A DNA stretch of 64,000 bases. Source: a virus. A model generated the notes under the pieces. It was not told where the DNA came from. It made no database searches and saw only the letters and a program-made list of their open reading frames with translations. This document shows, one piece after another, positions 25,548 through 50,500 of the stretch (position 1 is its first letter; each line of letters starts with the position of its first letter). The position numbers and the translations under genes were made by a program. Location: IMG/VR virus record IMGVR_UViG_3300005573_000005. One strand, given 5' to 3'.

Positions 25548-26843
25548 ATGAAGAAATTAAGTTTAATACATCCTACAAGAGGTAGACCTGCAATGTCTAC
25601 AGTTTGTATGCAGAATTGGATTTTATCAGCTTCGGGCAAAAATCCTATAGAGTATATATTGAGTTTAGATGAGTCAGATGCTTTTAATTACGAAGAAGCT
25701 ATAAAAACCTGGAGGAAATTTTTTGAGAAATATCCTTTTGTTACTTTTATTGTAAATATTGATAGAACATATTCCGTAACATCTTCACTTAACAGTGGGG
25801 CTAAATGTGCAACTGGAGATATTTTAATATCTGTTTTTGATGACATGGTACCTCCGAAGGATTGGGATGAGACTATAATAAAGCTAACAGAGGGTCGGGA
25901 GGATTGGGTATTATTTCCATTTGACGGGAATCGTAAGGATGATTTAATTACTATTTGTATTCTTGATAGAAAGTATTACGAACGGTTTGGTTATATTTAT
26001 TATCCTGGATATTTCAGTATGTGGAATGATAATGATTATTCTCAAACGGCTTTTTTACTAAACAAGGTTATAGATGTTCGCAAAGTTTTTACTATTGAAC
26101 ATAGACACTGGGCAATAAATAAAAGAGAGAAAGATAATACAGATATGAGACACGACAATGCAAAAACGTTTTCAGAAGGAAAGCGTTTATACGATAGACG
26201 TAAAAAGGACTTATTTGGTGTAGATGCTTTTTTAGATCCTATTAAACATCCTTTTGTACCTATAAATAAAGACATTTATTTGACAATAATGATACCTACT
26301 CTTGAAGAACGGAAGATTTTATTTGAGAGCTTAGTAGAATCACTTAAAAGACAGATAGTTACAAATAATTTGGAGAAAAAGGTGGAAATAATTTATTTAA
26401 GAGATAAAGGAGAAGAGAAAATAGGGAGAAAACGAAATAGACTACTACGTATGGCGTCAGGTTTGTTTTCAGTTTTTATAGATGACGATGATTTAGTTCC
26501 AGACGATTATGTAAAGACTTTTGTAGAAGTCATAGAGAAGTATGGCGATTCTATAGATTGTATAGGATTTGAAGGACTAACATTGAGACCTAATGGTAAG
26601 AAAGAAAGATTTGTTCATTCATTAGCATTTGGACCTGCCTGGTATACGAATAATTTAGGGACAGCATGTCGTCCACCTAACCATTTGAATCCTATTAGAA
26701 CGGAAATATCACGTTCTGTAAGCTTTCCACATGTAAGATGGGGCGAAGACCATGCATGGTCATTACAGATTTACGACAAATTGTCAAAAGAATATTTTAT
26801 AAAAAGAATAATGTATTACTACAGGTGCAAATATAATGCCTAA
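25548..26843 (+). CDS. two-domain glycosyltransferase (C-terminal GT2-like domain, N-terminal GT-A-like domain)
   Basis: C-terminal half: IYLTIMIPTLEERKILFESLVESLKRQ and FSVFIDDDDLVPDDY (DxD). N-terminal half: LSLIHPTRGRP... and ISVFDDMVPPKDWDE. Confidence 0.6.
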   Translation: MKKLSLIHPTRGRPAMSTVCMQNWILSASGKNPIEYILSLDESDAFNYEEAIKTWRKFFEKYPFVTFIVNIDRTYSVTSSLNSGAKCATGDILISVFDDMVPPKDWDETIIKLTEGREDWVLFPFDGNRKDDLITICILDRKYYERFGYIYYPGYFSMWNDNDYSQTAFLLNKVIDVRKVFTIEHRHWAINKREKDNTDMRHDNAKTFSEGKRLYDRRKKDLFGVDAFLDPIKHPFVPINKDIYLTIMIPTLEERKILFESLVESLKRQIVTNNLEKKVEIIYLRDKGEEKIGRKRNRLLRMASGLFSVFIDDDDLVPDDYVKTFVEVIEKYGDSIDCIGFEGLTLRPNGKKERFVHSLAFGPAWYTNNLGTACRPPNHLNPIRTEISRSVSFPHVRWGEDHAWSLQIYDKLSKEYFIKRIMYYYRCKYNA

Positions 26844-27813
26844 AATAGGGATATTAGTTACGACATTTTTACGACCTTTGTCAATACAAACGTTTTTAAA
26901 GACATTGTATAACTACGTACCGAATGATATATTTAGTGTATATGTGGCAGATCAGAGTAGCATGTATTACAATGTTGCAAGTATTTGGAATACATTGAAT
27001 TTTAATGCTATTAATACGTATGATATATATAATACATACACTAGTAAAACATATAATATATATAATAATATATATACTAGTACTTATAGTATATATACTA
27101 GTGACAAAGAAAGTAAAATAAATAATAAAGATTTATATACTAGTGACAAAGAAGACAAAATAAGTAATAAAGATTTATATAAAAATAATAAAGAAAGGTG
27201 TAATAAACTAGATAAATCAATTTTTTTCCATTATTTTGACATAGGTTTCGATAAAGGTACGAGTTATGCTCGCAATTTTCTTACTGAAGTAGTAAAAGAA
27301 CCTATTTGTCTTATAGTAGATGACGATTTTATGTTTGATGAAAACACAAACTTTGAAATCTTTTTAGATTTTTTAGAAGATTATCCGGATTTTGATATTG
27401 TGGGTGGACAATTACTTAAATCTGAGCCTTATATATATAATCTACGTTTTGAAGAAAATACTTTGTATTATTCTAAAGATTTAGAAGTTTTTGAGTATAA
27501 AGGTAAAAAAGTTTTAGTAGCTAATATAGTTCCTCAGTGTATGTTTTGCAGAACATCTATTTTCTCTGATTATCACTGGGATGAAATTTTTCATGTTTTT
27601 GACCATGATGACTTCTTTTTGAATTATCTTTCTTCAGGTAAAAAAGTAGCTTATTTAGATAGTTTTATTTGTATTCATAATAAATCAAGACCAAGTTCTG
27701 CATATAACACTTATAGAAATAGAGCCTGGATGGAAATACCTAAATTTCTTAACAAGTGGAATATTAAAGAAGTTGTAGGTCATCCTTATTTATACAAATT
27801 TTGTAAAGGATAA
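26836..27813 (+). CDS. GT-A/GT2-like glycosyltransferase interrupted by a low-complexity Y/N/T/K-rich insert
   Basis: IGILVTTFLRPLSIQTFLKTLYNY, then a ~75-aa low-complexity insert, then ARNFLTEVVKEPICLIVDDDFMFDE (DxD). Confidence 0.55.
   Translation: MPKIGILVTTFLRPLSIQTFLKTLYNYVPNDIFSVYVADQSSMYYNVASIWNTLNFNAINTYDIYNTYTSKTYNIYNNIYTSTYSIYTSDKESKINNKDLYTSDKEDKISNKDLYKNNKERCNKLDKSIFFHYFDIGFDKGTSYARNFLTEVVKEPICLIVDDDFMFDENTNFEIFLDFLEDYPDFDIVGGQLLKSEPYIYNLRFEENTLYYSKDLEVFEYKGKKVLVANIVPQCMFCRTSIFSDYHWDEIFHVFDHDDFFLNYLSSGKKVAYLDSFICIHNKSRPSSAYNTYRNRAWMEIPKFLNKWNIKEVVGHPYLYKFCKG
27097..27180 (+). repeat. 2 x 42-bp in-frame tandem repeat inside the glycosyltransferase insert
   Basis: actagtgacaaagaaagtaaaataaataataaagatttatat / actagtgacaaagaagacaaaataagtaataaagatttatat, encoding TSDKESKINNKDLY / TSDKEDKISNKDLY. 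Confidence 0.9.
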
Positions 27814-43093: not shown

Positions 43094-43258
43094 GTGTTGC
43101 TTAATGAAACTAATACAATTAGTCAATTAAAAAACGTTCGTTTTGAGATTGAAAGCCAGGTTTTAGAAGTTCAGAAAGAACTTTCTAAGTTTAGAGAACC
43201 CGACTCAGGATTACGTTTTTGTATCAGAAAATTCATTGCCTTAGTTGATAAAGTATAA
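43094..43258 (+). CDS. small hypothetical protein
   Basis: GTG 43094 lies 7 nt after AAGGAG. The listed TTG 43058 start lies inside the conserved intergenic motif. Confidence 0.3.
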   Translation: MLLNETNTISQLKNVRFEIESQVLEVQKELSKFREPDSGLRFCIRKFIALVDKV

Positions 43259-43622
43259 CAGTTTTGTTCAGATTTTTAAGAGGACTATGTTCCGTTTTTT
43301 CTGGAAAACTAAACAGGTTAAAGAACATTTGAAAAATCATCCGCATTGTGCTGTTTGCGGATATTTACCTAAATTTGGTCATAATGAAGTTCATCATATA
43401 ATACCTGTTTCAGTTGACCCTTCTTTAAAGAATGATCCTGAAAATTTAGTGACACTTTGTCACCATTGTCATAAAAGGTTTGGGCATTTCTCTAATTGGA
43501 AATACTGGAATCCAGATTTACGAAAGATTACACGTAATTTTTCTATAGGTATGGAAATGCTTTCTGCAGAAATAGCTTTTAAGGTTAATTATGAAAAAAG
43601 AAAAAATACTAAAGATTCTTGA
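43245..43622 (+). CDS. HNH endonuclease
   Basis: HPHCAVCGY..NEVHHIIPVSVDPSLKNDPENLVTLCHHCHKRFGH (Cys4 plus the H-N-H core). ATG 43287 is an alternative start. Confidence 0.75.
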   Translation: MIKYNSFVQIFKRTMFRFFWKTKQVKEHLKNHPHCAVCGYLPKFGHNEVHHIIPVSVDPSLKNDPENLVTLCHHCHKRFGHFSNWKYWNPDLRKITRNFSIGMEMLSAEIAFKVNYEKRKNTKDS

Positions 43623-44927: not shown

Positions 44928-45788
44928 GTGAAGAAGTTACTTTTAGCTATAAATGCATTTAATCGTCCTTATACGTTAAAATTATTGCTAACTTATTTAG
45001 AGTATGTTGGGTTTAGTTATCCTTTTATTGTGTTAGATCACGGTTCAACTGATTCTGAACAGATAGCTCTTTTAAAATCTTTACAGAGTAACAAAAAGCC
45101 TGGAAATTGCTTAGACATTATTAAATTTGATGTTAATCAATATAAAGGCAATTTTGCTTGTGGATTTGCTCGTAAAAATTGTATAGATTTTTTACTTGAC
45201 AAATATAGTAACTATGATTACTTTTTTGTGATAGATTGTGATATTCTTATAAACAACAAGACTATAGAGATTTGTTTGGAGGATTTTCAGAAATTGCGAG
45301 ATTGTAATTATAAAGTTGCTACTTATTCGCCTTATTCTTTTGTAGATGGGAATAATTTTGTTATTGACAATGTTATTTATTCTAATGCTGTTATAGGTGG
45401 AGATGCTTCTGTTTTTTACGATAGAAAAGCACTCATAGATATTGGTAATAACTTTGGAGCTTTTCCTGGAGGTTTTGGAGATTATCAATGGTATTGTGGC
45501 AGGAGGAAAGGTTATTTACATATTACAAGATTATCTCCAGTTTCAGAAATTCAACATTTAGGCATTTTAGATGGTTGCGTTTGTGAAAGACCGTATAGAC
45601 CATTCTGGTTAAATGATTTATTAAGAGATTGCAAGACAGGACAATATGTATCTATAAAAGATTTTAATCCTTTTGAGTTTTATCTTTTAGCTAAAAGATT
45701 TGGTTGTAAGGTTGCTTGTGACAAGTTTTTAGAGAAGTTTGAGCAAGAATTTCTTTCAACTACCGTGGAGAGAGATTGTCTAACGTGA
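44928..45788 (+). CDS. family 2 glycosyltransferase
   Basis: GTG start. LLLAINAFNRPYTLKLLLTYLEYV and YDYFFVIDCDILINNK (DxD). Confidence 0.6.
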   Translation: MKKLLLAINAFNRPYTLKLLLTYLEYVGFSYPFIVLDHGSTDSEQIALLKSLQSNKKPGNCLDIIKFDVNQYKGNFACGFARKNCIDFLLDKYSNYDYFFVIDCDILINNKTIEICLEDFQKLRDCNYKVATYSPYSFVDGNNFVIDNVIYSNAVIGGDASVFYDRKALIDIGNNFGAFPGGFGDYQWYCGRRKGYLHITRLSPVSEIQHLGILDGCVCERPYRPFWLNDLLRDCKTGQYVSIKDFNPFEFYLLAKRFGCKVACDKFLEKFEQEFLSTTVERDCLT

Positions 45789-46183
45789 AACAGAAACCTG
45801 TTATATTAAATTATGGAGGGTTAGTAAAAGCTTTAGGAAGAAAACCTGTTTTGTTATCTTTAAGGAAGGACCAACTTATAGGGAGGCTTACAGATCAGTC
45901 TTTACATGAATTGCGTAGTTTTGTTTCAAAAGGGAAAGATTTCTGGTTTAGTTTACCTGTTGTTAAGAGCAGTACGTTTGAAGAGTTGCTTGAAGAGTTC
46001 CTGACAAGTTCAGTTTCATGTCGTAATACTGTTTACAGATATGGTAAAAATTCCGATTATATGTTTCTTTTAGTAGAGAAAAATGGTTCAGCAGAATTGT
46101 ACATAGATGATGAACAAATGCGGAATTATTTAGCAAATTTGTTAGATTTTACTTTGATGGAGGAGAATAAAGATGCAAATTAG
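45776..46183 (+). CDS. hypothetical protein
   Basis: 135-aa ORF overlapping both neighbours. Start uncertain (TTG 45776 or GTG 45785). Confidence 0.4.
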   Translation: MSNVKQKPVILNYGGLVKALGRKPVLLSLRKDQLIGRLTDQSLHELRSFVSKGKDFWFSLPVVKSSTFEELLEEFLTSSVSCRNTVYRYGKNSDYMFLLVEKNGSAELYIDDEQMRNYLANLLDFTLMEENKDAN

Positions 46184-46616
46184 ACAAAGTGTTGTAGGTG
46201 TATCTACAAGTCCTGTAGTTGCAATGCTGGTTGAAAATTCTTCAACTATGGTAGTTGCTCTAAGAGTGACTAATTTGAGTAATGTTCAAGTTTCTGTTGA
46301 TGTAGAGGATTACGACGGTTCAAGCTGGACTTCTGTTCTTACAGCTTCTGCTACTGTTGAAGCGAAGGGTGTAAAAGACATAGTAGCTAATCTTAAAAGA
46401 AGTTCTACTTATCGTGTTCTTGTTACTGCGAATGCTAAAGGACAGGGACTTGTTAAAGTAGAACAAATTGTTTCTGAATATGACGTATCGGCTACAATAG
46501 CTGCGGATGATCGTCAACAGGTTCCTGGTGCTTGTTCTTCAATGTGTCAGACAGCTTGTCAGTTGTCTTGCGAACAGAATTGTCAGTCAGTTTGTGAACT
46601 TGCAAATCAAGCATAA
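46173..46616 (+). CDS. beta-rich protein with a C-terminal (C-x3)5-C cysteine-ladder tail
   Basis: About 110 aa of alternating beta-strand-like sequence, then GACSSMCQTACQLSCEQNCQSVCELANQA. Followed by a clean hairpin terminator. Confidence 0.5.
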   Translation: MQIRQSVVGVSTSPVVAMLVENSSTMVVALRVTNLSNVQVSVDVEDYDGSSWTSVLTASATVEAKGVKDIVANLKRSSTYRVLVTANAKGQGLVKVEQIVSEYDVSATIAADDRQQVPGACSSMCQTACQLSCEQNCQSVCELANQA

Positions 46617-46654
46617 TTGCTTGAACACACCTACCTGTGTTGTAAGATTTGTAT

Positions 46655-46684
46655 GGGCAAGTATGGTAGGATGCTTGCCCTTTT
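46655..46684 (+). terminator. rho-independent terminator
   Basis: gggcaag (46655-46661), a 12-nt loop, cttgccc (46674-46680), then tttt. Confidence 0.6.
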
Positions 46685-46712
46685 ACAAAAAATTTAAGGA
46701 GGTTTAGTTACA

Positions 46713-47714
46713 ATGCAGATAGTAGACCCTTACGATTTTGTTAATCAGCATGTTCAGGGTGGTAATGTTTGTTTTCTTGGTCATGGTGATTTACGTAATG
46801 ATTATATTGACCAGATTTCTTATAGAATTGCGTATTTAATGTTATCTCGGAAGTTTAAAAAGATAGTTACTGAAGGTAATGTAAAAAGATTTCGTGTAGG
46901 AGGGACTGTTGGGGTTATTAACATAGATAAAGAGTATCTTCATAGCATAATTTCACTTGAAGACATACCAGAAGGGGATTCTTATGATTATTTCAAAAAA
47001 CTTGTTGCAGACAGGCTTAAAAATGTTCTAGATACTGATGTTGATTGTTTTATTTCTGTGGGCGGTGGAGTTTTTCATGATAGCTATGACTCAATAGCTT
47101 TACATAGATTAGCTGAAATGCAATTTTATCTTGATAAAAATGTTCCTGTAGGTGTTTTTCCTATAAGTGCTTATTTCTCCAATAAGAAACTACTTACAAT
47201 CTTTACAAATGTTATAAGACAATGTAAGTTTGTTATGGTAAGAGATGCTTTTACTTATAAATGGCTTCTGTCTATAGGTGTAGATAATGTTGTTCTTAGC
47301 TGGGATTTACCTTTACTTGAGACACCTCATAAACCTCTTCAAGAATACTCTGGTAGAATTGGTGTTATTCTTACAATTGATAGAATTTCATCTAAAGGTT
47401 TTGAGAATTTACTTGAAAAGAATAATAAAAAGATGATGTTCTTTTCTACTTCTCCGAGGAAAGATGAACGAAGATTGAGATATGCTGCTTCTGAATGTGG
47501 TGGAGAACATGTGTATGCGTCTTCTCCTGATCATCTTATGGATTTAATTTCTTCTTGCAGTGCTATTGTTTCTGACAAGTACGGTGGCATTATACTTTCT
47601 GTTCTTCATGGTATTCCAGTAATACCACTTTGTGGTAAAGACCATTCTTCCAGAGGTTTTCTGGAAATGTTATCTGAGTTTAATTTTCTATCACCTCTTG
47701 AAATCCGAAAATAG
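46713..47714 (+). CDS. polysaccharide pyruvyl transferase-like protein
   Basis: ISVGGGVFHDSYDS and a C-terminal IVSDKYGGIILSVLHGIPVIPL resemble the GGG.l and RlHg.I.a...g.P.i motifs of the CsaB/WcaK family. From memory only. Confidence 0.4.
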   Translation: MQIVDPYDFVNQHVQGGNVCFLGHGDLRNDYIDQISYRIAYLMLSRKFKKIVTEGNVKRFRVGGTVGVINIDKEYLHSIISLEDIPEGDSYDYFKKLVADRLKNVLDTDVDCFISVGGGVFHDSYDSIALHRLAEMQFYLDKNVPVGVFPISAYFSNKKLLTIFTNVIRQCKFVMVRDAFTYKWLLSIGVDNVVLSWDLPLLETPHKPLQEYSGRIGVILTIDRISSKGFENLLEKNNKKMMFFSTSPRKDERRLRYAASECGGEHVYASSPDHLMDLISSCSAIVSDKYGGIILSVLHGIPVIPLCGKDHSSRGFLEMLSEFNFLSPLEIRK

Positions 47715-47723
47715 GAGTTTACT

Positions 47724-48053
47724 ATGATACAGGCAAATATAAATTATTATGATGTTCCTGCTACTCTTGGAACTATTTGCAATATAGTGGATGCTACGCA
47801 GGATACGAGATTTTTCTATTTTACTAATTTAGATAAAGTTAACACAATAACTTTGAAATTTCAGCAATCTACTGATGGAGGTAATACCTGGAATGATATT
47901 CAGGGAGCTGAAATTGTATTAGACCCTGAAGAAACAAAGTCTTTTTCTATTACAAATGCTAATTTACTACGTATAGTTGGTTCGGGAAATGCTCAATTAC
48001 TGGTAGTTCTGGTAAGAAACTTTGCTCCTAATGCTGTAACAATTGTTTTGTGA
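47724..48053 (+). CDS. small beta-rich protein (same style as the N-terminal parts of 46173 and 49961, no Cys tail)
   Basis: 109 aa with a beta-sandwich-like alternation (TITLKFQQSTDGGNTWNDIQGAEIVLDPEETKSFSITNANLLRIVGSGNAQLLVVLV). Confidence 0.45.
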   Translation: MIQANINYYDVPATLGTICNIVDATQDTRFFYFTNLDKVNTITLKFQQSTDGGNTWNDIQGAEIVLDPEETKSFSITNANLLRIVGSGNAQLLVVLVRNFAPNAVTIVL

Positions 48054-48062
48054 GAGACTTTT

Positions 48063-48944
48063 ATGAAGATCTTTATAGAAGATAAAGTTTTATTTATTGA
48101 AACAGAAAATTCTTGTTTTGGGTTTACTCCACTTGATTGTCCTGTTGAAGAAGCTTTATCTATTGTGGAAAATTTGTCTAAAGAAGATACAGAGAAAATG
48201 ATTAAATGGCTTAAGTCCCATTGTTCGGTTGTATATGCTCCTGTTTCACTTGTAGAGTCTTTGATAACTTTTCCACATTCTGGTAAAGGTTATGCTTACT
48301 TTGACGGGCAATCCTGGATACCTGTAGTTTCTTATACAAACAAACGTGAGTTATATCCTGCATTCTGTGGGGATGTTTGTTTAGGAGTAGACCTTGGTAA
48401 TAATTCCACTATTTTGATTTACGAAAGTTCGGATTTCTTTGTTGTACCTACTAATTGGGTTATTGAAGCCAGAAAGAGCTTATCTGTTCCTGATGTACTT
48501 GACAGAATAAACATGAAAAGAGGTAAAAAGAGGAAATTTTTTAAATTCTTGCGTCGTATTTCAGAAGAATACGAACCATCCAGGAATGTTCTTTATCCTT
48601 CCGTTCAGTTATTTAATTATATAAACAGAAAAATAGCTGAATTGCGTATTTATGACAAAATTGAGGATATAGAAGTTAAAGATGAGAATTTGTTTATAAT
48701 TCACTATCTTTATGGTGAGAAAGAAGAGAAAAGTTTTGAAGAAAAGTCTAAATATGAAAATTTTGTACGTTTATTAAGTGTTGTATTTCCGTATCTTGAA
48801 CAGTTTAGTTCTGATAACAAACGTATAATAGTTTGTTCTACAAGTCCTTTTGAAGCTAAATCTTCTGAGATAGTTTCTGTTAAGAAACTTGCAACTTCTT
48901 CTGCTGAACCTATTGGTTATGTAGATGAAAGAAAGGAGAATTGA
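48063..48944 (+). CDS. hypothetical protein
   Basis: 293-aa ORF. No motif recognised. Confidence 0.45.
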   Translation: MKIFIEDKVLFIETENSCFGFTPLDCPVEEALSIVENLSKEDTEKMIKWLKSHCSVVYAPVSLVESLITFPHSGKGYAYFDGQSWIPVVSYTNKRELYPAFCGDVCLGVDLGNNSTILIYESSDFFVVPTNWVIEARKSLSVPDVLDRINMKRGKKRKFFKFLRRISEEYEPSRNVLYPSVQLFNYINRKIAELRIYDKIEDIEVKDENLFIIHYLYGEKEEKSFEEKSKYENFVRLLSVVFPYLEQFSSDNKRIIVCSTSPFEAKSSEIVSVKKLATSSAEPIGYVDERKEN

Positions 48945-48945
48945 A

Positions 48946-49245
48946 ATGAAGAAATTTGGTCTTCTCTGTAGTTGCCCTATTTGTAATAGAACCTCTTTTG
49001 TAAAATGTAATGATGTTCTTACTGAAGCACTGAGAGTAAAATGTCCTTTTTGTGGTAAAGATTTTGATATTACTTTAAAGACTGAAGTTCCTCAGGAGAA
49101 GAAACCTGAGCCTGCACCTGAAAAGAAACCTTCTCCTCCGCCTGAGATGAAATCTGAAGTTGGTAAAGAAACTCCTGTTGAGAGAGAACCTGAGTCTGAA
49201 ATAGAAAGAGAGAGACCTGTATCAAGAGAGACGGAGAGAATGTAG
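48946..49245 (+). CDS. MJ0042-type zinc-finger protein with a Pro/Glu/Lys-rich tail
   Basis: RBS aaaggaga. CSCPICNRTSFVKCNDVLTEALRVKCPFCGKDF, then KKPEPAPEKKPSPPPEMK. Confidence 0.45.
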   Translation: MKKFGLLCSCPICNRTSFVKCNDVLTEALRVKCPFCGKDFDITLKTEVPQEKKPEPAPEKKPSPPPEMKSEVGKETPVEREPESEIERERPVSRETERM

Positions 49246-49247
49246 TT

Positions 49248-49526
49248 ATGGATAAAAACGGAATTTTAAAAATTTTATTCAGGAGATCTGAAGGTCTTCT
49301 TTCAGAAGATGTTACAGTTTTGTCTGATAGACCTGAGAAGGATGAAATTTTGCAAGATTTTGCTAAGAAGCATGGTGTAAAGTTTCGTAAAGATGGTAAA
49401 AAATTCCGTCTTAATGTACCTAAAGATAAATTGGGTAAAGTTTCTGCTACTCTTTCTTCTCTTGGTTTTGATGTTGCAATTGGGGATGAAAAACGATTAC
49501 AGAGAGGTTTAGCAGGACGGTTATGA
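49248..49526 (+). CDS. small hypothetical protein (weak tag-like N terminus MDKNGILKILFRRSE)
   Basis: 92-aa ORF overlapping the downstream start. Confidence 0.4.
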   Translation: MDKNGILKILFRRSEGLLSEDVTVLSDRPEKDEILQDFAKKHGVKFRKDGKKFRLNVPKDKLGKVSATLSSLGFDVAIGDEKRLQRGLAGRL

Positions 49527-49786
49527 ACAAGCATAAGATAATTGATATTTTATTTGAGAGTAAGAAGGATTTTGAACAGTTGTCAAGAGAAGGTCTTTTT
49601 GGTAAAACAAATAATTTGACTTACGATTCTTATACTAAAGTAAGAGATGCTTTTCAAAATCTTGAAAGAGTAATAGAACTTAGTTTTGGTGAGAATCAAG
49701 AGAAGATGAGAAAACTTCTCGGTTTATTACGGGAGGCTTTAGCTATTCTTGAACAAAATTATCCTGTCGAAGATAAAAAGGAATGA
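49523..49786 (+). CDS. small hypothetical protein with a tag-like N terminus MNKHKIIDILFE
   Basis: 87-aa ORF whose N terminus is a variant of MSKRYIIDKLFE. Confidence 0.45.
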   Translation: MNKHKIIDILFESKKDFEQLSREGLFGKTNNLTYDSYTKVRDAFQNLERVIELSFGENQEKMRKLLGLLREALAILEQNYPVEDKKE

Positions 49787-49790
49787 AGTT

Positions 49791-49949
49791 ATGAAGACTT
49801 TGTCCGATAAAGAGAATGTAAAAAGTTCTGATGAAGTACGGAGTGAAGTTTTAGCTGAAAAGGCTAAGAAGGTGCGTGAGATTCTTCAGGATTTGAAACG
49901 TAAAAAGATTTCTCCTGAAACTGCTGTTGAAAGACTTAAGAAATTATAA
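49791..49949 (+). CDS. small hypothetical protein
   Basis: ATG 49791 follows aaaagga. The listed ORF starts at 49749 inside the previous gene. Confidence 0.35.
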   Translation: MKTLSDKENVKSSDEVRSEVLAEKAKKVREILQDLKRKKISPETAVERLKKL

Positions 49950-49960
49950 GGAGATTTTCT

Positions 49961-50500
49961 ATGGCTAATGCATACGATTCAAAATATTTGGTTTTCAGAG
50001 ATGTTGTTAGAGATTATAAGAGATTTATTATTCCTTTTGCGAACGGTCTTACTTACAAACTACAAAATTTAGATGCGGTAAGTGTTGAGTGTTATGTATC
50101 TCTTGTTACTCTTCAAGGAGATTCTTACGGTATTATCGGAGATTTCGAATTAGCTCCTTTAGCAACATACACAGATGTGATTCCTTTTGAATGTGTTGCA
50201 GGAACAGAAGTTTCTGATCCTTTTCATCCTTATTTGTTTTTGGATTTACGTGTGGAACCTTTTGAAGGGAACGAGTGGAATACGTTGTTCAGGTATGGAC
50301 CTGTAGTTAAAGGCGTAGTAATTGAAGTTTGGCAAAATGCTCTTATGGATGTAAATAAAGAACATCCAGCACAAATACTGAGCGACCGAGAAAGATTTTT
50401 TGCTAGTTGTAGTGTTTCTTGTGAAACCTGGTGCGAATCTGGTTGCGAAACTGTTTGTCAATTTGATGTAATGTCTAAAAGTAATCCTGATGAACAGTAG
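49961..50500 (+). CDS. beta-rich protein with a C-terminal (C-x3)4-C cysteine-ladder tail
   Basis: ..FFASCSVSCETWCESGCETVCQFDVMSKSNPDEQ. Same architecture as 46173..46616. Confidence 0.5.
   Translation: MANAYDSKYLVFRDVVRDYKRFIIPFANGLTYKLQNLDAVSVECYVSLVTLQGDSYGIIGDFELAPLATYTDVIPFECVAGTEVSDPFHPYLFLDLRVEPFEGNEWNTLFRYGPVVKGVVIEVWQNALMDVNKEHPAQILSDRERFFASCSVSCETWCESGCETVCQFDVMSKSNPDEQ

Follow-up and report, generated by a model that had tools for sequence, protein, structure and literature searches.

Cysteine ladders in proteins of uncultured tailed phages co-occur with radical SAM/SPASM maturases and may be thioether-stapled segments

Our comparative data indicated that cysteine ladders with the repeat unit C-[Q/E]-x-[S/T/G/A], found in two proteins encoded in a 64,000-nucleotide stretch of viral DNA (IMG/VR record IMGVR_UViG_3300005573_000005; hereafter, the window), occur together with a radical SAM/SPASM (rSAM/SPASM) gene, whether loci are retrieved by the ladder or by the enzyme. 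We propose, with a probability of roughly 0.6, that the ladders are enzyme-stapled and probably glycosylated segments of phage proteins, a chemistry that we infer by analogy with characterized maturases. No prior description of the pairing of a phage ladder with an rSAM enzyme as protein stapling was found.

All ORFs named in the initial annotation of the window were present on the plus strand at their coordinates (Table 1), and the two tails that it had described were confirmed. Ladder protein A ends in GACSSMCQTACQLSCEQNCQSVCELANQA and has no cysteine apart from the six of its ladder, and ladder protein B carries CSVSCETWCESGCETVCQ with five cysteines, the spacing being exactly i/i+4 in both. 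At the cysteine frequency of the window ORFs (2.0%), ~7e-5 five-Cys and 1e-6 six-Cys ladders would be expected by chance. A six-frame regular-expression scan of the window recovered no further ladder of four or more cysteines, and its two 3-Cys matches both lay in stop-interrupted frames outside ORFs.

Table 1. Features of the ladder region in window coordinates
Feature	Coordinates	Strand	Description
GT2-like glycosyltransferase	44928..45788	+	First cassette gene; weak PF13704 match (E 5e-4, below cutoff)
p135	45776..46183	+	Conserved partner; stop overlaps ladder A start by 11 nt
Ladder protein A	46173..46616	+	147 aa; jelly-roll body (residues 1-102), linker, C-terminal (C-[Q/E]-x-x) ladder with 6 Cys at 46533-46595
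Hairpin with U tract	46655..46684	+	Intrinsic-terminator-like, 3' of ladder A; 10-bp stem at 46655-46680, then UUUU
Polysaccharide pyruvyl transferase, CsaB-like	46713..47714	+	PF04230 (E 5e-22; 79.6 bits vs cutoff 25.3)
p109	47724..48053	+	Small, beta-rich; may be a paralog of the ladder A body that lacks the tail
Ladder protein B	49961..50500	+	179 aa; 5-Cys ladder at 50408-50458 near the C-terminus

An exhaustive phmmer search of 1.84e9 representatives recovered four relatives of ladder A with 27-30% identity, and, judged from sequence, the 147-aa protein is the founder of a rare family with five diverged members. The earlier reading had been made dependent on conservation of the tails in homologs, and this was observed throughout: the body and a tail of 5-8 Cys are kept in 4/4 relatives, and 6 of the 13 invariant columns of the family-A alignment lie inside the ladder. 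As far as alignments can tell, the view that the ladder tails are conserved and functional held up. For ladder B, a ladder-bearing protein stands at the syntenic position in contig L016 (9472-10281, CLFQCEFGCETSCEVLCQ), with marginal similarity beyond the ladder; no ladder-bearing counterpart was found in contig L021.

The source phage is a T4-like (Gp23-type) myovirus, in which PHROG and Pfam matches identified the Gp23 major capsid protein, S77 prohead protease, portal, gp13/gp15, sheath, and T4 baseplate proteins; its major capsid protein shares only 30-34% identity with its counterpart in any cultured phage. Over positions 1 to ~11,000, the window overlaps with 0 mismatches with contigs L012 and L007, which hence represent the same phage genome; they carry a 455-aa gene with Radical_SAM and Fer4_12 domains, followed by a Glyco_transf_9 (GT9) gene and then p156. 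With its end 8.8 kb upstream of the first window position, the rSAM gene is 55 kb away from ladder A, and the initial annotation, made from the window alone, was therefore written without the decisive partner. The location of the enzyme gene 55 kb from the ladder genes of the window phage, rather than next to them, is a point against stapling. The C-terminal 252/455 aa of the window-phage enzyme could be read, and this part has the SPASM motif CMSCNIRYLCGGGC; CX2CX5CX3C and an upstream Cys/Gly-rich motif were found in L012:3-761 (CGAGKGYLSC...AC and CMSCNIRYLCGGGCREC), and the enzyme passes TIGR04085 (45.3 bits vs cutoff 27). The N-terminal radical SAM domain is putatively assigned from precomputed PF04055 and PF13353 matches of the 455-aa product and from homologs; the CX3CX2C cluster motif was seen in a 46%-identical one (L010), as CQLRCDYC. 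The top family matches of the partial enzyme were the SCIFF maturase, QhpD, and PapB, which on sequence grounds places it among the radical SAM/SPASM enzymes of the PapB/SCIFF/QhpD thioether-forming clade. No rSAM gene was found on the contigs of the other family-A phages, each of 24 kb or less.

The association between ladders and enzyme was evident in both directions. Ten IMG/VR viral loci were retrieved by ladder pattern only (a 10-residue search pattern); an rSAM/SPASM gene lay within 10 kb of the ladder in 8/10 contigs, the other two ending at the ladder gene, and PapB ranthipeptide maturase was the best match for 8/8 of these ladder-adjacent enzymes, with those of L029 and L031 being close homologs of the window-phage enzyme (E 1e-58 to 5e-62). 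When 19 IMG/VR loci and 3 MAG contigs were retrieved by enzyme only, same-strand ladder ORFs were found 84 bp to 7.1 kb upstream of the enzyme in 16/19 and 3/3, respectively (19/22), and the three contigs without a ladder stop within 1.2 kb on the upstream side of the enzyme gene. The base rate for any homolog of the phage enzyme is 54 in 50,697 phage records. GT9 follows the rSAM gene in 15/19 of the enzyme-selected IMG/VR loci, a homolog of the window GT2-like gene is present in 11-12/19, and p156 homologs are present in at least 12/19, with some GT2-like and p156-like domains being fused. Because this GT9/GT2-like/p156 cluster recurs in enzyme-selected loci, the ladder locus of the window can be tied to the distant rSAM locus of the same phage.

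These data bear on the mechanism proposed earlier for the tails, an unmodified cysteine zipper in which the i/i+4 spacing sets the thiols on one face of a helix for inter-chain disulfides or metal binding (Cu(I), Zn, Fe-S) and in which the rSAM enzyme would have no role. The AF2 model of ladder A does draw the tail as a helix, albeit with low confidence (pLDDT <50, compared with 81-93 for the body), and Csp copper-storage proteins use CxxxC-lined helices. The body also matched Ena endospore appendage subunits in Foldseek (probability 1.0; TM ~0.46-0.49, target-normalised), which are also small jelly-rolls and are covalently locked by disulfides from a Cys-bearing terminal extension; in Ena, however, the connector is short and N-terminal, the disulfides are spontaneous, there is neither repeat nor maturase, and no sequence-family match links Ena to ladder A. 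A repeat with a period of exactly 4.0 shifts by ~40 degrees around an alpha-helix with every unit, and over 30-125 Cys a ladder would not stay on a single face; the bacterial cytoplasm, where phages are assembled, does not form disulfides. The zipper would also leave unexplained both the conserved Gln/Glu after each Cys and the near-perfect two-way association with PapB/SCIFF-type maturases, and we consider it unlikely. Since the rSAM/SPASM partner co-occurs with ladders in both search directions, enzyme-installed thioether staples are likelier than zippers that form spontaneously through disulfides or metals. The first suggestion, that a structural or fibre protein is covalently locked, stays close to the comparative data.

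The composition of the repeat points to ranthipeptide chemistry. Among 321 ladder units, the first position is Cys in 100% and the second is Gln in 57% and Glu in 32%, an enrichment that in the first ten loci owes part of its size to the 10-residue pattern used for retrieval; the enzyme-selected set is free of this effect. The same unit, C-Q-[T/S]-[S/A] at period 4, forms the core of SCIFF peptides (CteA-CteB, Tte1186a-Tte1186), as in CQTSCQSAC; canonical SCIFF peptides contain CGECQTSCQSACKTSC, and CQTSCQSACKTSC may be compared with CQTACQLSCEQNC in the window, which bears out the earlier impression that the tails resemble RiPP cores. The SCIFF maturase (TIGR03974) is, moreover, the best or near-best family match of the phage rSAM/SPASM enzyme. 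SCIFF peptides (TIGR03973), however, are free, ~45 aa long, with exactly six Cys and an adjacent maturase, and come from Clostridia, whereas the phage core is fused to proteins of 147-3000 aa with 5-125 repeats, the window-phage carriers (147/179 aa) lie 55 kb from the enzyme, and phage clusters add GT9 and GT2-like genes. Membership in the SCIFF system was rejected, the maturase scoring 73 bits (partial) or 157-170 bits (full or near-full-length homologs) against an equivalog cutoff of 425 and the carriers falling outside the precursor definition. Only one thioether has been detected in characterized SCIFFs although they have six Cys (PMC8326336), which speaks against a fully stapled ladder.

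PapB, the freyrasin maturase (NF047865), resembles the phage system in having a tandem motif, with Cys at a period of ~5 and an acidic acceptor, and it installs six in-line thioethers (PMC9413430). The links run between Cys and Asp/Glu of six C-X3-D/E motifs, and PapB also accepts spacings of n = 0-6 (PMC9413430). The phage unit differs from the C-X3-D/E motif of PapA in having Q/E at +1 instead of +4, with Gln commoner than Glu, and PapA is a leader-dependent peptide rather than a structural protein. Here too the scores, 56 bits (partial enzyme) and 93-190 bits (enzymes next to ladders), lay below the equivalog cutoff (340), and membership was rejected. Other linkage geometries are on record: with NxxcB the link runs between Cys23 and Asn20 (acceptor-x-x-Cys), and the cross-links made by QhpD are in a protein subunit, not a peptide (PMC8326336). 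QhpC, the QhpD substrate in quinohemoprotein amine dehydrogenase (TIGR03906), resembles the phage case in carrying rSAM/SPASM-installed Cys-Asp/Glu thioethers in a protein kept in a functional assembly (PMC8326336), but it lacks a tandem repeat, its three links are specific and accompanied by a cysteine tryptophylquinone cofactor, and it is a periplasmic enzyme subunit of non-viral origin. The bioinformatically defined CXXX-repeat rSAM targets (TIGR04114/04117/04118 with TIGR04115/04119; PF27846) also pair a tandem Cys-x-x-x repeat with an rSAM maturase of its own, and weak matches to them were found for the window tail and the relatives P0003 and P0007; scores of 16.1, 15.8, and 11 bits against cutoffs of 20, 50, and 35 did not support membership, the phage enzymes match TIGR04115 much worse than PapB or SCIFF, and no NCBIfam model matched the long phage ladders at E 1e-5. 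To our knowledge, the CXXX-repeat systems are cellular and chemically uncharacterized. The initial annotation had not recognized the motif as a described family; its unit is in fact that of the SCIFF core and resembles the NCBIfam 'Cys-Xaa-Xaa-Xaa repeat radical SAM target', although the phage proteins stay below every curated cutoff.

The tandem C-[Q/E]-x-[S/T/G/A] tails, in which folded phage proteins carry the unit of the SCIFF ranthipeptide core at their C-termini, are most likely the substrates of the phage's own rSAM/SPASM maturase. By analogy with PapB, CteB/Tte1186, and QhpD, its closest characterized relatives, this enzyme would remove a hydrogen from the side chain of the Gln/Glu (or Ser/Thr) in each unit, and the carbon so activated would then bond to the sulfur of a neighboring Cys, giving a string of small thioether rings that would make the tail a covalently stapled, redox-independent rod. 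We know of no demonstration that Gln, the commonest residue at position 2, serves as a thioether acceptor. The same segment or protein is probably glycosylated by GT9 and the GT2-like enzyme, joined in the T4-like clade by the pyruvyl transferase. Alternatively, the enzyme and the ladder may be partners in a different chemistry, such as formylglycine or dehydro-residue formation (anSME-like), epimerization, or mainly S-/O-glycosylation by GT9/GT2-like enzymes with the rSAM enzyme acting on the sugar. The GT9 family includes the protein O-heptosyltransferases TibC/AAH, SunS-type GT2 enzymes S-glycosylate Cys, and the link of two glycosyltransferases to the cluster is as tight as that of the rSAM gene; anaerobic sulfatase maturase families were also matched (E 1e-17 to 1e-28). 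The thioether-forming families clearly outscore anSME (e.g., 184 vs 98 bits), the anSME target motif (C/S-x-P/A-x-R) does not occur in the ladders, and the ladder unit matches the SCIFF core, all of which makes such an alternative improbable. A comparison with sublancin-type glycocins, raised in the initial annotation on account of the GT2 gene, was not sustained: these have a helix-loop-helix with two nested disulfides instead of a uniform C-x3-C tandem repeat, no thiol-disulfide oxidoreductase or transporter was found at 43-52.5 kb of the window, and the GT2-like gene was the sole common feature.

Ladder carriers ranged from the 147 and 179 aa of the window phage up to ~2950 aa elsewhere, with 5-125 ladder Cys, and most other phages have it, internally or at the C-terminus, in baseplate, tail-tip, or further large proteins of 300-3000 aa. 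Tail_P2_I was found in six carriers and Phage_Tail_Tip in two, and by these domain matches P2-gpI baseplate or tail-tip proteins make up most of the assignable carriers. In Foldseek, the ladder A body matched jelly-roll relatives, including ~110-aa proteins annotated as 'virion protein' or 'virion structural protein', one of which was from Synechococcus phage S-SCSM1. Considering this likeness together with the late-region position, the terminator, and the ladders on baseplate and tail proteins of other phages, ladders A and B may be virion proteins; the modified proteins would probably be abundant late or virion-associated ones, as in other phages the ladder forms part of baseplate (P2 gpI-like), tail-tip, and further large proteins. 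These carriers also weigh on the possibility that ladder A is a RiPP precursor, whose ~120-aa body would serve as a leader or recognition domain (cf. Nif11, NHLP) and whose modified tail would be cleaved after the Gly-Ala/Gly before the first Cys and freed as a ranthipeptide for signaling, host takeover, or competition. The core does stand at the extreme C-terminus after small residues (PGA|C, KLG|C, and EAG|C in the family-A alignment), a nif11-like peptide maturase family was among the best enzyme matches, the ladder A gene appears highly expressed, and SCIFF-derived peptides are linked to quorum sensing in work cited in PMC8326336. No peptidase or exporter (C39/PCAT) was found in the window or related loci, however, the body is a well-folded jelly-roll like small virion proteins, and release from proteins of 300-3000 aa is implausible, so we give this possibility little weight.

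Extending the stapling proposal, we suggest tentatively, and at slightly below even odds, that many uncultured tailed phages build rods of tens to >100 C-[Q/E]-x-x units into baseplate, tail-tip, and further large proteins and into small accessory proteins, staple them by dedicated phage-encoded rSAM/SPASM enzymes into consecutive thioether rings, and glycosylate them with GT9 and GT2-like enzymes inherited together (joined by a pyruvyl transferase in the T4-like clade), an undescribed element in which RiPP chemistry would serve as virion hardware. Small secreted peptides and one enzyme subunit (QhpC) are the known settings of radical-SAM thioether chemistry; on phage tail, baseplate, and accessory proteins it would constitute a structural post-translational modification of viruses and provide a second biological context for the long-enigmatic SCIFF motif. 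Orphan 'radical SAM maturase' and 'arylsulfatase regulator' genes, listed in the phage literature as unexplained or as antibiotic genes (e.g., PMC12801897), would be accounted for, and natural tandem substrates (5-125 units) with compact maturases would become available for engineering redox-proof stapled protein rods.

The cassette around ladder A has an order common to the family-A loci: GT2-like, p135, ladder protein, hairpin, pyruvyl transferase, and p109. Homologs of p135 lie immediately 5' of every family-A gene (L014, L016, L018, and L021; E 1e-10 to 6e-15); p135 itself had no match in Pfam, PHROG, or PDB. The GT2 assignment was weak on the window protein, but homologs stand upstream of the ladder A gene in L016 (E 3e-38) and L021 (E 3e-59), and one directly after rSAM-GT9 in L029 (E 5e-23) passes PF00535 (27 bits vs 23.3). 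The pyruvyl transferase, a solid assignment above the PF04230 gathering score and below the cutoff for TIGR03609 CsaB (E 2e-10), follows ladder A wherever downstream DNA is visible (L014, L016, L018, and L021). The suggestion that the adjacent sugar enzymes belong with the ladder system agrees with this conserved cassette and with the GT2-like homologs in rSAM clusters. A terminator proposed for the first ladder gene was missed by a simple terminator scan, yet the hairpin and UUUU are real: the 96-nt spacer has an MFE of -27.6 kcal/mol (z -2.5), and strong hairpins with U-rich tracts occur after the homologous gene in 3/4 other loci (L016, L021, and L018), at the same place with different sequence (z -3.3 to -4.8), which appears in line with high expression. 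Downstream of the pyruvyl transferase, p109 is kept in L016 (E 2e-17) and L021 (E 2e-20), and its proposed identity as a ladder A body without the tail drew weak support from profile-profile comparison with family A (hhalign probability 24%, E 8e-4) and the common motif NL(S/D)...DG..W.

Two proteins encoded in the window carry ladders, that is, tandem C-x3-C repeats (C-[Q/E]-x-[S/T/G/A]), and the initial annotation described both of their open reading frames (ORFs) correctly. A six-frame regex scan found no further ladder of at least 4 Cys in the 64 kb, and at the 2.0% Cys content of the window's ORFs, chance predicts about 7e-5 five-Cys ladders. Every gene of the window is on the + strand, the GC content is about 33%, and tRNAs were absent. 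PHROG and Pfam matches comprised a family-A DNA polymerase, SbcCD, portal, S77 prohead protease, and Gp23-type major capsid protein within the window, with gp13, gp15, sheath, and T4 baseplate proteins immediately past it. The phage is a deep-branching T4-like myovirus, and its major capsid protein shares only 30-34% identity with its counterparts in cultured phages. The ladder genes belong to the late region, where the protease and capsid genes follow 6-10 kb downstream of them. No match was obtained against 50,697 cultured or deposited phage records, either by blastn with the region 44.9-52.2 kb or by tblastn with ladder A, one long ladder protein, and a family 9 glycosyltransferase (GT9).

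Coordinates of the ladder genes, their neighbors, and additional features in the window and in other contigs
Feature	Sequence	Position	Strand	Description
GT2 gene	window	25548-26843	+	two GT2 stretches
GT2 gene	window	26836-27813	+	
HNH endonuclease gene	window	43245-43622	+	immediately upstream of the cassette
GT2-like gene	window	44928-45788	+	
p135	window	45776-46183	+	small conserved protein
Ladder A	window	46173-46616	+	147 aa, C-terminal end GACSSMCQTACQLSCEQNCQSVCELANQA
Hairpin	window	46655-46684		10-bp stem then UUUU
Pyruvyl transferase	window	46713-47714	+	
p109	window	47724-48053	+	small conserved protein
Zinc-ribbon protein	window	48925-49245	+	
Ladder B	window	49961-50500	+	179 aa, includes CSVSCETWCESGCETVCQ
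Radical SAM homolog	L010	70-1914		
Zinc-ribbon protein	L021	11947-12948		
Tail-tip-type ladder carrier	L027	5149-8400		
Tail-tip-type ladder carrier	L030	1003-4341		
SCIFF peptide	L033	19411-19626		
SCIFF peptide	L034	1002-1160		
SCIFF peptide	L035	565-732		
Ladder ORF	L043	1492-3438		648 aa
Ladder protein	L050	1448-3667		739 aa

Ladder A, ladder B, p135, and p109 belonged to no family in Pfam, PHROGs, or NCBIfam. The pyruvyl transferase call of the initial annotation proved firm (PF04230, E 5e-22), and its GT2 call stood in part: the match of the window protein itself was weak, but a homolog in another phage passed PF00535. Counting the two additional GT2 genes of the window, GT9, the GT2-like gene, and the pyruvyl transferase, this phage encodes at least five glycan-related enzymes. 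The HNH endonuclease was recognized by the Pfam HNH match of an identical gene in another contig (L002).

Word-indexed protein searches with both ladder proteins returned near-identical copies only. An exhaustive phmmer search of 1.84 billion representatives identified four relatives of ladder A (153-166 aa; 27-30% identity in alignment), all of which combine a beta-rich body (NLSN...DG..W) with a ladder of 5-8 Cys at the C-terminus (e.g., CESSCQDQCQTTCVTSCEDNCQTACELSCQTALE). The tail that the initial annotation had singled out was thereby found to be conserved in homologs, being kept in all four relatives, and 6 of the 13 invariant alignment columns of the family fall within the ladder. The contigs of these relatives share the cassette order GT2-like, p135, ladder A, a spacer of about 90 nt, pyruvyl transferase, and p109; in the two long contigs (L016 and L021), Peptidase_S77 and Gp23 follow the cassette at a distance of a few kb. 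The p135 gene overlaps the start of ladder A, which suggests that the two are translationally coupled. The hairpin noted earlier after ladder A is present, and the spacers of 4/5 loci contain a strong hairpin and a U-rich tract; since the hairpin recurs although the spacer sequences are unrelated, ladder A may be followed by a conserved terminator and be highly expressed. At the position of ladder B, a second ladder protein was found in L016 and none in L021, and homology of the ladder B body was marginal. Of the compared loci, only those of the T4-like clade had the pyruvyl transferase, p135, p109, and the ladder A body. The window phage and the diverged relative L021 also share, within the late-gene block of the ladders, a zinc-ribbon protein (CPxC...CPxC) whose tail is rich in Pro, Glu, and Lys (PEKKPxP).

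A six-frame regex scan for CX3CX2C radical SAM ORFs found none inside the 64-kb window. On contigs overlapping the window start by about 11 kb with zero mismatches, a 455-aa gene had precomputed matches to Radical_SAM and Fer4_12; Glyco_transf_9 (GT9) and a 156-aa ORF (p156) come directly after it. The stop codon of this radical SAM gene precedes window position 1 by 8.8 kb and is separated from ladder A by 54.9 kb. The C-terminal 252 of its 455 residues, the portion read, contain the SPASM signature CGAGKGYLSC and CMSCNIRYLCGGGCREC and pass the SPASM domain model. They scored best, in each case below the equivalog cutoff, against the SCIFF thioether maturase (E 2e-20), QhpD (5e-19), and PapB (3e-15). 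The CX3CX2C motif is present in homologs 38-46% identical in alignment, and the L010 homolog (46%) has an extra C-terminal extension of about 170 aa relative to the enzyme of the window phage. A word-indexed protein search with the C-terminus yielded no match. As a base rate, homologs of the enzyme occurred in only 54 of the 50,697 deposited phage records, and the radical SAM locus of Campylobacter phage CP220 is without a ladder.

IMG/VR queries with a single ladder A protein, a single enzyme fragment, or a three-sequence enzyme alignment gave no matches, and loci were retrieved only with family alignments. Searching IMG/VR with a degenerate ladder pattern built from the family alignment yielded ten loci that encode 300-3000-aa proteins with huge ladders; a radical SAM/SPASM gene was found within 10 kb in eight, often abutting the ladder gene, and the other two contigs stop at the ladder gene. 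The enzymes of all eight loci matched PapB best, followed by SCIFF, QhpD, and nif11-type maturases, and two of them, from L029 and L031, are closely homologous to the enzyme of the window phage (E 1e-58 to 5e-62 against its C-terminal fragment). In the opposite direction, querying with just an enzyme alignment recovered 19 IMG/VR loci and 3 MAG contigs. Same-strand ladder ORFs (5-125 ladder Cys) were located 84 bp-7.1 kb upstream in 16/19 and 3/3, respectively; in the three exceptions the contig extends less than 1.2 kb upstream of the enzyme. A spontaneous disulfide or metal zipper through the ladder Cys, an idea of the initial annotation, would leave this enzyme association and the conserved Gln/Glu unexplained, and the ladders are far longer than one helical face accommodates, making it an unlikely account.

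The carrier domains included P2 gpI baseplate (six), lambda-J-type tail-tip (two), and fn3 (one). The ladder tail might instead be released as a ranthipeptide, with the body serving as a protein-sized leader, as the C-terminal location of the ladder and the G-A/G residues preceding the first Cys would allow; this is improbable given that no peptidase or exporter was found and that ladders are embedded in large tail proteins. In the tail-tip-type carriers of L027 and L030, the ladder is followed by GGGGC[W/I]..GTPV..., which by eye resembled a Hint/intein-type autoprocessing domain, but a whole-protein Pfam scan detected no Hint/intein family. The most extreme ladder seen, in L043, has 125 ladder Cys, nearly all in C-E-x-x repeats. 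The L050 protein, adjoining a radical SAM homolog, has 119 ladder Cys with the unit C-T-x-G, in which Thr replaces Gln/Glu at position 2, suggesting that acceptor-residue variants of the system may exist.

The enzyme-selected loci have the order ladder protein(s), radical SAM enzyme, GT9, GT2-like, and p156-like. GT9 follows the enzyme in 15/19, homologs of the window's GT2-like gene occur in 11-12/19, and p156 homologs occur in at least 12/19, some fused to a GT2-like domain. Genes that are 55 kb apart in the window phage, GT2-like on one side and the enzyme-GT9-p156 block on the other, are therefore neighbors or fusions elsewhere, which is the strongest evidence that the GT2-like-headed ladder cassette and the distant block probably work together. 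p135 and p156 are mutually unrelated and had no PDB relative.

Among 321 units, each opening with Cys, the second residue was Gln in 57% and Glu in 32%; for the first ten loci, but for no others, the search itself imposed part of this bias. Thr, Ser, Gly, and Ala predominate at the third and fourth positions. The canonical SCIFF peptides examined contain GGCGECQTSCQSACKTSC, a unit identical to that of the phage ladder. PapB forms six links from Cys-S to Asp-C-beta or Glu-C-gamma in C-X3-D/E motifs, tolerating 0-6 intervening residues with in-line or nested rings (PMC9413430). NxxcB joins Cys23 to Asn20 (acceptor-x-x-Cys), SCIFF maturases link Cys to Thr, and the target cross-linked by QhpD is a protein subunit (PMC8326336). 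Based on the shared SCIFF core and these precedents, we propose that the radical SAM enzyme could install in-line thioether rings along the ladder (e.g., [Q/E]-x-x-C), which would turn it into a covalently stapled, reductant-proof rod. GT9 and the GT2-like protein might add a glycan on Ser/Thr or Cys, with pyruvylation possibly added in the T4-like clade of the window phage. There is a small chance that the enzyme performs other radical SAM chemistry or that glycosylation is the principal event. Membership in the sublancin-type S-glycopeptides, the other suggestion of the initial annotation, was rejected, a GT gene being the only defining feature in common; copper-storage (Csp) proteins likewise share only the Cys spacing.

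AlphaFold2 modeling from a 5-sequence alignment gave a confident eight-to-nine-strand sandwich for ladder A residues 1-102 (pLDDT 81-93) and a low-confidence helix for the tail (pLDDT <50). Jelly-roll relatives identified by Foldseek included PirA, the Ena subunits of endospore appendages (disulfide-locked pili), and proteins of about 110 aa that carry the annotation 'virion protein' or 'virion structural protein'; Synechococcus phage S-SCSM1 encodes one of these 110-aa proteins. The modeled body and these relatives fit a small protein that may be virion-associated.

The ladder system appears to work like a ranthipeptide/SCIFF or QhpCD system, by analogy, although it fell below every curated membership threshold tested and differs from them in being viral, in its carriers (phage structural proteins), in its copy number (5-125 units), and in its GT partners. 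Canonical SCIFF peptides with adjoining SCIFF-type maturases were also seen in L033, L034, and L035 (MT835472, MT835702, and MT836452), 'UNVERIFIED Bacteriophage sp.' contigs from human faeces, which represent either phage-borne systems or bacterial DNA deposited as phage. A full-text literature search turned up no account of a pairing between phage ladder proteins and radical SAM maturases. For the cultured T4-like Vibrio phage vB_VspM_VS1, 'arylsulfatase regulator' and radical SAM genes are listed next to an LPS heptosyltransferase, and cyanophage S-SCSM2R encodes a 'radical SAM superfamily maturase', with both papers leaving these enzymes unexplained (PMC10473537 / PMC12801897); either phage could offer a cultivable handle on related systems.
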